The position numbers and the translations under genes are program-made. Under the pieces are notes generated by a model, which saw nothing but the letters and a program-made list of their open reading frames with translations, did no database searches and had not been told where the DNA came from. This document shows, one piece after another, positions 7,759 through 55,789 of a DNA stretch of 64,000 nt; position 1 is the first letter of the stretch; the number at the start of each line of letters is the position of its first letter. The DNA lies in assembly GCA_029220445.1 (NCBI GenBank), contig GCA_029220445.1_3666.1; one strand, written 5' to 3'. Origin of the DNA: a phage.

Positions 7759-7893
7759 ATGAGAAAGATAATCATCACCTTGGGGATTGTGGCGGGATCG
7801 CTGGCGCTCTTTCCCCTTATGGTTAGGTATGTGCTGATCAGTATTGTCCTGGTAGTCAGTGATCTATTGGAAACGGTTGGCACCTTGTTTTAA
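7759..7893 (+). CDS. small membrane peptide (44 aa)
   Basis: ATG 2 nt after upstream stop; hydrophobic throughout. Confidence 0.3.
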   Translation: MRKIIITLGIVAGSLALFPLMVRYVLISIVLVVSDLLETVGTLF

Positions 7894-7906
7894 AGAGCGA
7901 TAAAAA

Positions 7907-8098
7907 ATGAATGTCGAACAAGTTAGAAAGGTATTGGCGGTACTGCGTTATCATAATCATAGAAAGGTCATAGACGATCCTGATTATGTCGATTCAAACC
8001 TGGAAGAGGATACACTACAAGCCATAAGTAACATGCAAGAATTGCTAAAGCGCATGACAGAGAAAAACCGACCGGACTACATAGGCGAAAAAATATAA
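7907..8098 (+). CDS. hypothetical early protein (63 aa)
   Basis: ORF followed by intrinsic terminator. Confidence 0.5.
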   Translation: MNVEQVRKVLAVLRYHNHRKVIDDPDYVDSNLEEDTLQAISNMQELLKRMTEKNRPDYIGEKI

Positions 8099-54564: not shown

Positions 54565-54660
54565 AATATTTTCTTGACAAACTTTGCTTAACAGTGTAAT
54601 ATTGTAAACATGGTCTCCCACCTTTTCTGGCGGCTAAGGTGTAAAAGAAAGCCACCCAGT

Positions 54661-54735
54661 GCCCTGTTAGCTTAGTGGATAAAGCAGCGGCCTTCTAAGC
54701 CGTTGACACTGGTTCGAGTCCAGTACGGGGTGCCA
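54661..54735 (+). tRNA. tRNA-Arg (anticodon UCU)
   Basis: Manual cloverleaf: acceptor gccctgt/acggggt, anticodon loop cttctaa, T-loop ttcgagt, CCA encoded. Confidence 0.8.
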
Positions 54736-54739
54736 AATT

Positions 54740-54826
54740 GGGGAGTTATCCCGTAGAGGTAGCGGTGTAGACTGTAAATCTATTGTCATTGCGACTCGGG
54801 TGGTTCGACTCCACCACTCCCCACCA
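54740..54826 (+). tRNA. tRNA-Tyr (anticodon GUA), type II with long variable arm
   Basis: Acceptor ggggagt/actcccc, anticodon loop ctgtaaa, T-arm ggtgg-ttcgact-ccacc, CCA encoded. Confidence 0.7.
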
Positions 54827-54940
54827 AATTTATATTTTTAGATGCATAAATAATACAGATAATGGCATTGATATTTATCGTCGTTTATACTAGTCACTAA
54901 CTGCTCGAAAATCAGTGTCATTATCAGTATAATTTATAAA

Positions 54941-55031
54941 GGAGGGTAGGGAGCAATGGTGCTCAAGCGGTCTTGAAAACCGTCCCGTTGAGGATGACTC
55001 GATGATGGTTCGATTCCATTACTCTCCGCCA
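54941..55031 (+). tRNA. tRNA-Ser (anticodon UGA), type II with long variable arm
   Basis: Acceptor ggagggt/actctcc, anticodon loop cttgaaa, T-loop ttcgatt, CCA encoded; position 8 is A (unusual). Confidence 0.65.
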
Positions 55032-55129
55032 CATTGTTGACCTTGTAATTAAGCGAAAGCCGGAAGCAGAACCGGATTATCAAATGTTACAGTCGTCATC
55101 GCCGACTAGCAACATGGTCAACATACTGA

Positions 55130-55226
55130 GCTAGGTAAGCCCTTTGGCAAGGGCGAGGATTTTTAATCCTGAAAATAGACGAGGTAGTCGTTGAATACAT
55201 AGGTGGTTCGATTCCATCACCTAGCA
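55130..55226 (+). tRNA. atypical tRNA-like element (97 nt): normal acceptor, D and T arms, 4-bp anticodon stem with loop tttttaa (UUU, Lys-like) and ~30-nt extra arm; may be a pseudogene
   Basis: Acceptor gctaggt/acctagc perfect; D arm gccc-tttggcaa-gggc; T arm ggtgg-ttcgatt-ccatc; no CCA. Confidence 0.35.
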
Positions 55227-55233
55227 CCTTTTT

Positions 55234-55309
55234 GCTGATGTAGCACAATCGGTAGTGCAATTGATTTGTAATCAATAGGTTGTAGGTTCAAGTCCTGCCA
55301 TCAGCACCA
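55234..55309 (+). tRNA. tRNA-Thr (anticodon UGU)
   Basis: Acceptor gctgatg/catcagc, D stem gcac/gtgc, anticodon arm attga-tttgtaa-tcaat, CCA encoded. Confidence 0.8.
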
Positions 55310-55310
55310 A

Positions 55311-55385
55311 GGCCCTGTAGCTGGAAGGTTCAAGCAAGCGACTCATAATCGCCAGACGGTGGTTCAATTCCACCCAGGGCCACCA
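55311..55385 (+). tRNA. tRNA-Met (anticodon CAU; elongator, or Ile2 if lysidine-modified)
   Basis: Acceptor ggccctg/cagggcc with G1-C72, anticodon loop ctcataa, T arm ggtgg-ttcaatt-ccacc, CCA encoded. Confidence 0.7.
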
Positions 55386-55396
55386 AATAGTAAATA

Positions 55397-55473
55397 CTCC
55401 GCGTAGCTCAGCTTGGTAGAGCGCCTGATTTGGGATCAGGAGGTCGAGTGTTCGAATCACTCCGTGGAGACCA
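55397..55473 (+). tRNA. tRNA-Pro (anticodon UGG)
   Basis: Acceptor ctccgcg/cgtggag (C1-G72 as in tRNA-Pro), anticodon arm cctga-tttggga-tcagg, T-loop ttcgaat, CCA encoded. Confidence 0.8.
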
Positions 55474-55519
55474 CTTTCAGTTATACTTTAAACATATACA
55501 AACAAAAGGAACCTTTAAA

Positions 55520-55789
55520 ATGTATACACTTAAAATTGTAGAGCGTGTAAATCCAACTCATACCGTAGATTTTCGTGACGATTTCAATCCTCTGGCTGTA
55601 AATCTTCGAGAGTCATATCATGAACTCAGCTGCGATGCAGTGGTGGTCTTTTTTGAAGACAACTCTGAAGGGGCGGTAGCTTGTGTTGTTGATAGTGAGC
55701 AGAAGTTTTATATTTACAGAGATGTAGATGCATACTTGATGAATGAAAATGCAGTTACTGTTAGAATCATCCACCGAGTGCCTCGATAA
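55520..55789 (+). CDS. hypothetical protein (90 aa)
   Basis: ATG 55520 with AAAGGA RBS just after tRNA cluster (track start 55430 lies inside tRNA-Pro). Confidence 0.5.
   Translation: MYTLKIVERVNPTHTVDFRDDFNPLAVNLRESYHELSCDAVVVFFEDNSEGAVACVVDSEQKFYIYRDVDAYLMNENAVTVRIIHRVPR

Follow-up and report, generated by a model that had tools for sequence, protein, structure and literature searches.

A conserved tRNA-shaped RNA gene in the tRNA cluster of rV5-like phages and its possible link to host tRNA-Lys(UUU)

What is the tRNA-shaped gene of 97 nucleotides (nt) that lies between tRNA-Ser (5' side) and tRNA-Thr (3' side) in the tRNA cluster of an rV5-type phage? We addressed this question in a 64,000-nt stretch of phage DNA (GenBank assembly GCA_029220445.1, contig GCA_029220445.1_3666.1; the window in what follows), where the gene, here called the element, occupies positions 55130-55226 on the + strand. 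Well over 200 sequenced genomes of phages, including many candidates for therapy or biocontrol, contain the gene, and in these it is unannotated or carries one of four incompatible labels. It is unannotated in the rV5 record, and the rV5 paper lists six tRNAs and omits it. The records of the BASEL phages call it tRNA-Lys (AAA), that of Murica tRNA-OTHER 'Asp|Gly', and that of JLBYU08 tRNA-Stop(tta), while the record of Erwinia phage Hena1 has its homologue as tRNA-sup(tca). A definition of the family would settle this conflict (Lys, Asp|Gly, Stop, sup). Judged from comparative sequence analysis, the element is a real, conserved tRNA-shaped RNA gene of rV5-like phages.

The element, its fold and its family

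A sequence-only reading had placed a 97-nt element at 55130-55226, with a perfect acceptor stem of 7 base pairs (bp), canonical D and T arms, a 4-bp anticodon stem with loop tttttaa and anticodon UUU, an extra region of ~30 nt and no encoded CCA. All of this was borne out, except that the D arm is not fully canonical. Read 5' to 3', the RNA is composed as follows:

55130-55136, +: acceptor stem, 5' strand GCUAGGU, seven perfect pairs with 55219-55225
55137-55138, +: linker A8 A9; A8 is invariant in the family, canonical tRNAs have U8
55139-55154, +: D arm, GCCC-UUUGGCAA-GGGC, extendable to 6 bp with the 4-nt loop UGGC, as in tRNA-Sec and allo-tRNAs
55155, +: single G (position 26) at the boundary of D arm and hairpin 1, entropy 0 across 32 members
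55156-55170, +: hairpin 1, the anticodon-arm analogue, AGGA-UUUUUAA-UCCU, 4 bp against the canonical 5
55171-55201, +: extra region of 31 nt, made up of hairpin 2 and two unpaired junction strands
55171-55177, +: 5' junction strand GAAAAUA, its GAAAA invariant in 32/32 members
55178-55192, +: hairpin 2, the extra arm, GACGA-GGUAG-UCGUU, 5 bp, 15 nt
55193-55201, +: 3' junction strand GAAUACAUA, its AAUACAUA invariant in all members
55202-55218, +: T arm, GGUGG-UUCGAUU-CCAUC, canonical; the C at 55209 is C56
55219-55225, +: acceptor stem, 3' strand ACCUAGC, pairing with 55130-55136
55226-55229, +: discriminator A73, then CCU; CCA is not encoded

The minimum-free-energy fold of the element is this cloverleaf plus the extra hairpin (-34.2 kcal/mol, z-score -3.3), and none of 200 shuffles folded equally well. 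The 7-bp acceptor stem, the 5-bp T stem, a T loop of the form UUCRANY and the elbow pair between G55147 of the D loop and C55209 of the T loop are those of a canonical tRNA. The lower half is different. The D arm is not fully canonical, with A8 and U14, both invariant in the family, in place of U8 and A14; the anticodon stem has 4 rather than 5 bp beneath its 7-nt loop; and the variable region is neither the usual 4-5 nt nor a class II arm joined by 1-2 unpaired bases, given that hairpin 2 is bordered by 7 (5') and 9 (3') unpaired conserved bases. CCA is encoded by all six neighbouring tRNAs, so that the element is the sole gene of the operon without it.

Prediction programs recognized the element as a tRNA only in part. 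ARAGORN returned 55130-55228 as 'tRNA-???' with a 4-base anticodon, which is not a standard tRNA with other boundaries. The Rfam tRNA model (RF00005) scored 35.5 bits, above its gathering score of 29, in an alignment that deleted position 27 and inserted 26 nt of variable region. Rfam matches to the element were confined to the tRNA and tRNA-Sec models, with no hammerhead or other ribozyme, YrlA or transfer-messenger RNA (tmRNA), and ARAGORN in its tRNA plus tmRNA mode likewise called no tmRNA. Two of the existing labels can be set aside on structural grounds: the 4-base anticodon 'atcc' behind 'Asp|Gly' has no consistent stem register, and no register of the window hairpin puts the UUA of 'Stop(tta)' at positions 34-36 with a paired stem. 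As to a suppressor label, the anticodon UCA is confined to clades C and D (see below), where position 33 is A.

Comparison with the clusters of related phages, which the sequence-only reading had proposed, revealed a conserved family. Low-stringency BLAST recovered diverged copies in Avunavirus (Av-05, about 93% identity), Seunavirus (PVP-SE1, 4MG, KE22, EspYZU15 and SSE121, 72-77% identity), Mydovirus (KB57, Mydo, DP and KPP-1) and Henunavirus (Hena1 and pEp_SNUABM_01), and pattern scans of IMG/VR and metagenomes added further uncultured clades. The resulting set holds 32 distinct sequences from five Vequintavirinae genera and uncultured relatives. A covariance model built from 15 variants gave members 86-128 bits and ordinary tRNAs at most 29 bits, with nothing in the gap between. 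The homologues always lie within tRNA arrays, 2-7 nt from the adjacent tRNA. We found no description of the family in the literature searched.

The structure has been maintained while its sequence changed. Across the 32 members, 99.0% of 704 stem cells are standard pairs, compared with 83% in column shuffles and 30-46% when the 3' partners were slid, and 12 of the 22 pairs have changed on both sides; the covariation score was 0.484 against at most 0.098 in slid controls, where the cells counted are sequences rather than independent events, in a family with about four or five deep lineages. The acceptor stem is 100% paired, with changes on both sides in four of its seven pairs, as is the case for three of the four pairs of the D stem. 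At the elbow (columns 18:90), 23 members have G:C and 9 have U:A; no member leaves the two bases unpaired. RNAalifold, run on its own, arrived at the same cloverleaf but gave the D stem two more pairs, 14:21 and 15:20, for a total of 6 bp and a loop of 4 nt; these two pairs never vary and are thus without covariation.

Hairpin 2 is formed in every member from unrelated sequences and measures 22-26 nt in other genera. Among the seven Seunavirus and Mydovirus types 90.5% of its helix cells pair and four of the six outer pairs change on both sides; between rV5 and Av-05 there is one A:U to G:C switch. The extra domain of the family (31-40 nt) consists of a variable hairpin between two invariant single strands, GAAAA and AAUACAUA. 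The invariance of GAAAA is unbiased, because it was in no search pattern, whereas that of AAUACAUA, which was part of the metagenome search pattern, is independent for the BLAST-found members only. A decaying pseudogene, one of the identities that the sequence-only reading had offered, is rejected, as compensatory changes keep the structure across five phage genera.

An internal control was provided by the adjacent tRNA-Thr(UGU) in the same nine genomes. In all nine, tRNA-Thr keeps its loop (YUUGUAA), A73 and CCA unchanged while its stems drift. The loops of the element in those genomes are UUUUUAA (rV5), UUUAUAA (Av-05), CCAUCCAG, CCAGCCAG, CCCUCCAG and CAUCAAA, of which CCAUCCAG, CCAGCCAG and CCCUCCAG have 8 nt or, read alternatively, 5 bp plus 6 nt. 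Overall, hairpin 1 of relatives has 4 bp plus 7 nt, 4 bp plus 8 nt, or 5 bp plus 5-6 nt, and the YAUCAAA loop of clades C and D places an A at position 33. At the discriminator, most relatives have U and a few have C, A being confined to the rV5 type; the 3' tail is CCA, CCU, CAU or ACA. Expressed as entropy, the loop averages 0.96 bits per column and the discriminator 1.05 bits, against zero for G26, GAAAA and AAUACAUA. Anticodon, discriminator and CCA, which orthologous tRNAs such as tRNA-Thr conserve, are thus not conserved in the element. ARAGORN made no call on it in the diverged clades, and in clades C and D the best Rfam clan match was tRNA-Sec (36-41 bits, gathering score 47).

Because loop, discriminator and tail are free to change, the common role of the family is not the decoding of one fixed codon. 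On these alignments the element family is a tRNA with a normal upper half and a remodelled lower half, and not an ordinary group of tRNA orthologues. It is a new structural variant among known non-canonical tRNAs and tRNA-like RNAs, a natural case, in virulent phages of well-studied hosts, of a frozen upper half, a rebuilt lower half and a freed 'anticodon'. Of the identities first offered, a tRNA-derived, possibly regulatory, RNA fits best at the family level, where loop, discriminator and tail vary and the core is frozen in comparison with tRNA-Thr. A functional unusual tRNA may still fit the rV5-type copy (a 7-nt loop with U33, UUU and A37, a derived A73 and no other tRNA-Lys(UUU) in its lineage).

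Several simpler roles for the conserved parts were rejected. An antisense regulator acting through the invariant strands is contradicted by reverse complements that occur at chance frequency in the window (TATGTATT has two occurrences on the + strand and three on the - strand, one of them the element's own complement, about 2.1 being expected per strand), and the ATGTAT start of the open reading frame (ORF) downstream of the element is not kept in other genera. Kissing of the loops of hairpins 1 and 2 (UCCA/UGGA; GCCA/UGGC in 4MG) had P of about 0.5 against shuffles and is absent in clades A, C and D. The conserved blocks are unlike promoter hexamers. A terminator role was rejected as well, since the D arm and U-rich stretch are terminator-like in the rV5 type only, the intrinsic-terminator-like score there falling on the D-arm hairpin followed by GAGGAUUUUU (55139-55164); a run of five U also stands 3' of the element, at 55229-55233. 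Mimicry of a host-encoded RNA was rejected on the lack of any BLAST match to the element in 5,426 E. coli genomes and 72,556 plasmids. A loose pattern scan of bacterial genomes produced chance matches only, none of which passed a stricter motif screen, and two enterobacterial loci from the pattern scan had no match to the family model.

A possible lysine link and competing explanations

The rV5-type copy (SPECIFICALLY) has several features that point to lysine. At positions 30-40 (GA-UUUUUAA-UC) it matches GA-CUUUUAA-UC of E. coli tRNA-Lys(UUU) at 10 of 11 positions, the comparison sequence being that of PMC11464382. Its 7-nt loop with U32, U33, UUU, A37 and A38, the pair A31:U39 and A73 form a lysine set that occurs in no other clade. 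The combination of UUU and A73 is likewise restricted to the rV5 type, Av-05 having A35 and other clades U73 or C73. U35 and A73 are the two strongest identity elements for lysyl-tRNA synthetase (LysRS) in E. coli. Furthermore, rV5-type phages have six tRNAs and no tRNA-Lys besides the element, and are the sole such lineage among the relatives examined. Av-05 has a canonical tRNA-Lys(UUU) and an element with UAU and U73; PVP-SE1 has a separate 86-nt tRNA-Lys(UUU), with a hairpin inserted in its D loop, and an element with a non-Lys loop; and two uncultured relatives have a canonical tRNA-Lys(UUU) and elements with non-Lys loops.

Host tRNA-Lys(UUU) is a site of conflict between phages and bacteria. 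PrrC, PARIS/AriB and a bacterial Schlafen all cut it, phage tRNAs neutralise PARIS and retron effectors, and competitive inhibition by viral tRNAs has been raised as a possibility (PMC12409363). The recognition site of AriB, the PARIS nuclease, is U36AAUCA41, with the cut falling between positions 40 and 41; cleavage is strongly inhibited by A41C, and the resistant tRNA-Lys of phage T5 reads UAAACC at 36-41 (PMC12409363). The element has UAAUCC at these positions, against UAAUCA in the AriB site.

Because the rV5-type copy has the LysRS identity marks and these phages lack a tRNA-Lys(UUU) of their own, we tentatively hypothesize, with a probability of roughly 45%, that the rV5 element is a remodelled tRNA-shaped RNA that stands in for host tRNA-Lys(UUU), or acts as its decoy, in the conflict over that tRNA. 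It would be co-transcribed with the tRNA operon, RNase P would free its 5' end at G1, and its 3' end would be formed by exonuclease trimming and then by the CCA-adding enzyme, as for the CCA-less tRNAs of T4; removal of the U of CCU and addition of one A would yield an ACCA end. The product may then accumulate as a stable L-shaped RNA in which hairpin 1 would present a near-exact tRNA-Lys(UUU) anticodon loop alongside the derived A73. It could replace the host tRNA, being refractory to the nuclease and chargeable by LysRS, or it could compete with that tRNA as a look-alike and keep the nuclease occupied. The presence of UUU with A73 where the tRNA-Lys gene is missing favours charging. If this lysine link is true, the defeat of PARIS, retron Eco7, PrrC and Schlafen by phage tRNAs extends to non-canonical RNAs, which raises the question of whether such RNAs are substitutes or decoys.

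A number of observations weigh against this hypothesis. Few independent lineages underlie the complementary distribution of tRNA-Lys genes and lysine-like elements. C40 and C41 are invariant family-wide, so that C41 is ancestral and not an adaptation of rV5. In the sister lineage Av-05/TH18 one loop base differs (UAU), and with U73 or C73 the copies fit no E. coli identity set; because Av-05 and TH18 nonetheless keep the structure, the function shared within the rV5/Av-05 clade is not lysine-specific. Efficient decoding by a substitute is made less likely by the 4-bp stem, by A8/U14, by an unprecedented 31-nt junction domain and by the lack of CCA, and a mere substrate would poorly block an enzyme that turns over, as a decoy must. 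Finally, phage V18 has a deletion that removes tRNA-Ser and fuses the 5' half of tRNA-Tyr (through the anticodon arm) to the 3' half of the element (hairpin 2 onward), leaving a chimeric tRNA-like remnant (L008 about 651-746). V18 has lost the 5' half of the element yet propagates, from which the element is dispensable in the laboratory; it also does without tRNA-Tyr and tRNA-Ser.

The rV5 copy could instead be a plain, if odd, tRNA-Lys(UUU) that is charged by LysRS and reads AAA and AAG for codon supply, its extra domain tolerated and without a role in defence. The same loop (U32, U33, UUU, A37, A38) and A73, the 7/5 acceptor/T branch with an intact elbow, the lack of any other tRNA-Lys in rV5-type phages and the annotation in BASEL phages all agree with it, as do the extra hairpins on decoding tRNAs of relatives, including tRNA-Asn, whose synthetase is of class IIb like that of tRNA-Lys. 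We nevertheless consider it unlikely. The anticodon stem has four pairs and lacks position 27 in the Rfam alignment, A8/U14 replace U8/A14, the junction domain with its 13-16 invariant unpaired bases resembles no class II arm, and the element alone in its operon is without CCA. Homologues show 6- or 8-nt loops or A33 and variable discriminators, and in Av-05 the change U35A loses the main LysRS determinant and the RNA is still kept. E. coli tRNA-Lys is moreover abundant, which makes codon supply a weak motive.

We find it similarly doubtful that the element is a non-decoding structural or regulatory mimic of tRNA that acts through its core (the top half and the GAAAA/AAUACAUA junction), with the Lys-like loop incidental. 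Such a core could, for example, bind a host or phage protein that reads tRNA shape, such as a processing, modification or 3'-tail-directed enzyme. It is the core and not the loop that is invariant across five genera, and ARAGORN fails to call the elements of diverged clades. There is also precedent in T4 species 1 RNA, which lies in a tRNA cluster and has a T arm, and in inactive allo-tRNA(UAU) species for which a non-translational role was proposed (Mukai et al., PMC5389517). Set against these are the eight ORFs flanking the element, among which there is no gene for a tRNA-handling enzyme, and the lack of a homologue to imitate in the E. coli genomes and plasmids searched. Nor would a mimic of this kind explain UUU and A73 exactly where the tRNA-Lys gene is missing.

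A broader and distinctly improbable reading would make the whole family an anti-defence RNA chassis, in which a constant nuclease-refractory body, made up of the top half, the invariant junction and the extra hairpin, carries an anticodon-like tip that lineages swap, acting as a competitive inhibitor rather than a decoder. The tip would imitate whichever host tRNA the defence nucleases or toxins met by each lineage attack: that of Lys-UUU for the rV5 phages of E. coli, a Gly-UCC-like NCCA loop for phages of Salmonella and Klebsiella, and UCA for Erwinia phages. If that were true, the family, together with the hairpin-bearing tRNA-Asn, tRNA-Glu and tRNA-Lys described below, would mean that Vequintavirinae systematically 'armour' or counterfeit tRNAs.

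Very unlikely, in our assessment, is a relic tRNA that works in cis only, its acceptor/T-arm module serving as punctuation for RNase P and 3' processing or as a transcript stabiliser and the mature RNA having no function. The constant position within tRNA arrays, the top half as the best-conserved paired part, the survival of V18 and the other irregular tRNA-shaped genes of the same arrays suit such a relic; it accounts neither for the 13-16 invariant unpaired junction bases nor for the covarying hairpins 1 and 2 and the kept elbow pair, and adjacent tRNAs have their own processing determinants.

The least probable of the explanations scored is a missense or nonsense suppressor of the allo-tRNA kind, whose charging would depend not on the anticodon but on a synthetase that reads the long extra arm, namely seryl-tRNA synthetase (SerRS), or the acceptor end; it would insert a wrong amino acid at AAA/AAG (rV5), AUA (Av-05) and UGA (Erwinia phages). 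E. coli tRNA-Ser has G2:C71, against the C2:G71 that is invariant in the element family. The branch is 7/5 and not 8/4 or 9/3, clades B-D have A33 and clade B 6- or 8-nt loops, 7 and 9 unpaired bases separate the extra hairpin from the junction, and the window copy has A73 and no CCA. These objections outweigh a D arm that can take the form seen in tRNA-Sec and allo-tRNAs, the long extra arm, U73 in most clades, a freely varying anticodon (a hallmark of allo-tRNAs), the Hena1 label tRNA-sup(tca) and the tRNA-Sec matches of diverged clades (36-41 bits), which stay under the gathering score of 47; G73 or U73 with a long variable arm has been taken as a mark of SerRS (Mukai et al., PMC5389517).

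Genomic setting and other irregular tRNAs

Over 54600-55520 the window shares 100% identity with Escherichia phage FFH2 and 99.5-99.9% with rV5 and many other Vequintavirus genomes. Approximately 18 GenBank records named 'Campylobacter phage' (within MG065635-MG065690) are 99-100% identical over this locus to E. coli rV5-type phages, which suggests that their hosts are mislabelled or that they contain coliphage contamination. The cluster around the element contains the following features, the tRNA genes being ARAGORN calls, all on the + strand:

54574-54602, +: predicted sigma-70-type promoter TTGACA-17-TAATAT upstream of tRNA-Arg, a consensus match, P(tRNA) in the rV5 record
54661-54735, +: tRNA-Arg(tct)
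54740-54826, +: tRNA-Tyr(gta)
54941-55031, +: tRNA-Ser(tga)
55234-55309, +: tRNA-Thr(tgt)
55311-55385, +: tRNA-Met/Ile2(cat)
55397-55473, +: tRNA-Pro(tgg)

The promoter-like site at 54574-54602 is, from its sequence, likely the start of the tRNA operon that holds the element. The CAU tRNA at 55311-55385 is recorded as tRNA-Met in rV5 and Murica and as tRNA-Ile (AUA, lysidine-modified) in the BASEL phages. Flanking the cluster are small ORFs without assigned function upstream and, downstream, one such ORF, the spanins and the large terminase.

Two spacers of the cluster are themselves structured. The Tyr-Ser spacer (54827-54940, 114 nt) is AT-rich, and its fold is a long hairpin (-26.2 kcal/mol, z -4.45). 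Within it, just 5' of tRNA-Ser, positions 54905-54933 resemble a promoter (TCGAAA-17-TATAAT). The spacer between tRNA-Ser and the element (55032-55129, 98 nt) is closed by UGUUGACC/GGUCAACA and folds with two hairpins inside (-25.8 kcal/mol, z -2.6); this spacer may represent a further small RNA or an intermediate of processing.

Irregular tRNAs were also observed elsewhere in related phages. Extra hairpins occur on normally short tRNAs at L194 7933-8017 and 8079-8164 (PVP-SE1), L195 4636-4726 (Av-05), L156 10932-11019 and L187 5859-5947. In relatives, tRNA-Asn(GUU) has a 4-5-bp variable arm (85-91 nt) and tRNA-Glu(UUC) a variable arm (88-89 nt), and the 86-nt tRNA-Lys(UUU) of PVP-SE1 is '???' to ARAGORN. 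In all of these hairpin-bearing Asn, Glu and Lys tRNAs the anticodon stem still has 5 bp, its 7-nt loop has U33, and CCA is retained. As otherwise canonical tRNA-Asn and tRNA-Glu bear extra hairpins, the subfamily tolerates, or even favours, such additions to decoding tRNAs; the hairpins might hinder nucleases, because Asn-GUU and Lys-UUU are PARIS targets.

Seunaviruses and Mydoviruses have a further tRNA-shaped gene between tRNA-Thr and the element (L006 619-694, L007 618-694, L010 551-626 and L011 551-625). Its loops are ACGAUUC, AAGAUUC and ACGAUUA (without U33, and with U at 37), ACAGAUCC (8 nt) and ACGAUA (6 nt), and ARAGORN reports it as Ile(gat), ???(agat) or ???(ga). This gene may be a second non-decoding tRNA-like gene. 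In uncultured clade D a tRNA-shaped gene of ~135 nt lies directly upstream of the element (L156 about 7815-7948; likewise in L178, L183 and L184). Its acceptor stem is GAUGCGU/ACGCAUC, its D arm is of class II type, and it also has a T arm, A73 and CCA; a central insert of ~65 nt varies from contig to contig. ARAGORN makes no call here. Uncultured clade C contigs carry an ARAGORN tRNA with a CUA anticodon ('tRNA-Pyl', of amber-suppressor type) at L167 7862-7934 and L187 2791-2865.

Comparison with known systems

The T4 species 1 and 2 RNAs (rnaC and rnaD) are stable small RNAs that, like the element, are encoded inside a phage tRNA cluster. The T arm of rnaC is canonical and closed by a terminal stem, but both RNAs are longer than the element (119-139 nt) and have neither a cloverleaf D arm nor an anticodon-like arm. 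Homology was rejected, as the family model scored 6.7 bits on rnaC with filters off. The tRNA-Other of Bacillus cereus is, like the element, a tRNA-like small RNA; it can be aminoacylated and is not an ordinary elongator. Its origin is bacterial, it lacks an extra domain, and a LysRS1/LysRS2 complex charges it. It is cited in PMC5389517.

With regard to the lysine hypothesis, the tRNA-Lys(UUU) of T5 (PMC11464382, PMC12409363) shares with the element the UUU loop, A73, an anticodon stem unlike that of the host at the AriB site, and C41. The T5 tRNA is canonical, has 76 nt, and was shown to resist cleavage and to rescue infection, whereas the element has 97 nt, is irregular and is known from its sequence, and its C41 comes from a family most of whose members are not Lys-like. 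A precedent for RNA mimicry in rV5-like phages is pseudo-ToxI of PhiTE (PMC3475682), a non-coding RNA that mimics a host RNA and disarms an abortive-infection nuclease. Unlike the element, it is not tRNA-shaped but imitates an antitoxin by means of a pseudoknot derived from repeats, and its locus is another one.

Bacterial tRNA-Sec (RF01852) has, like the family, an extra arm, and its 6-bp/4-nt D arm is compatible with the fold of the family, a relative being aligned as 6/4 by the tRNA-Sec model; the loop YAUCAAA of clades C and D compares with CUUCAAA in tRNA-Sec. Whereas tRNA-Sec has an 8/5 branch, G73, U33 and UCA, the family has a 7/5 branch, A, U or C at 73 and, in some clades, A33, and the window copy has UUU. 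The 7/5 branch and the discriminator exclude a tRNA-Sec identity, as do the scores of 36-41 bits against a gathering score of 47.

A structural likeness also exists to the allo-tRNAs and selC* tRNA-Cys (PMC5389517). Their long Sec-like D stem, capped by a tetraloop, is a form that the element family may adopt, and they share with it a long extra arm, a common U73 and an anticodon that varies freely among relatives, UAU, the anticodon of the Av-05 element, being the commonest in allo-tRNAs. Some allo-tRNAs are inactive in translation and were proposed to be regulatory RNAs, and irregular tRNAs occur in polycistrons (PMC5389517). The branch of allo-tRNAs and selC* is 8/4 or 9/3 and their anticodon stem is longer; in all members of the family the branch is 7/5, where an eighth acceptor pair would set A8 opposite C65, and the anticodon stem is shorter (4 bp). 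In the family, unlike in allo-tRNAs, the extra hairpin is set off by invariant single strands. The hosts differ as well, being Acidobacteria, Clostridia and Deltaproteobacteria for allo-tRNAs and virulent enterobacterial phages for the element family. The family is a 7/5 counterpart of the allo-tRNAs, and as such is relevant to tRNA engineering.

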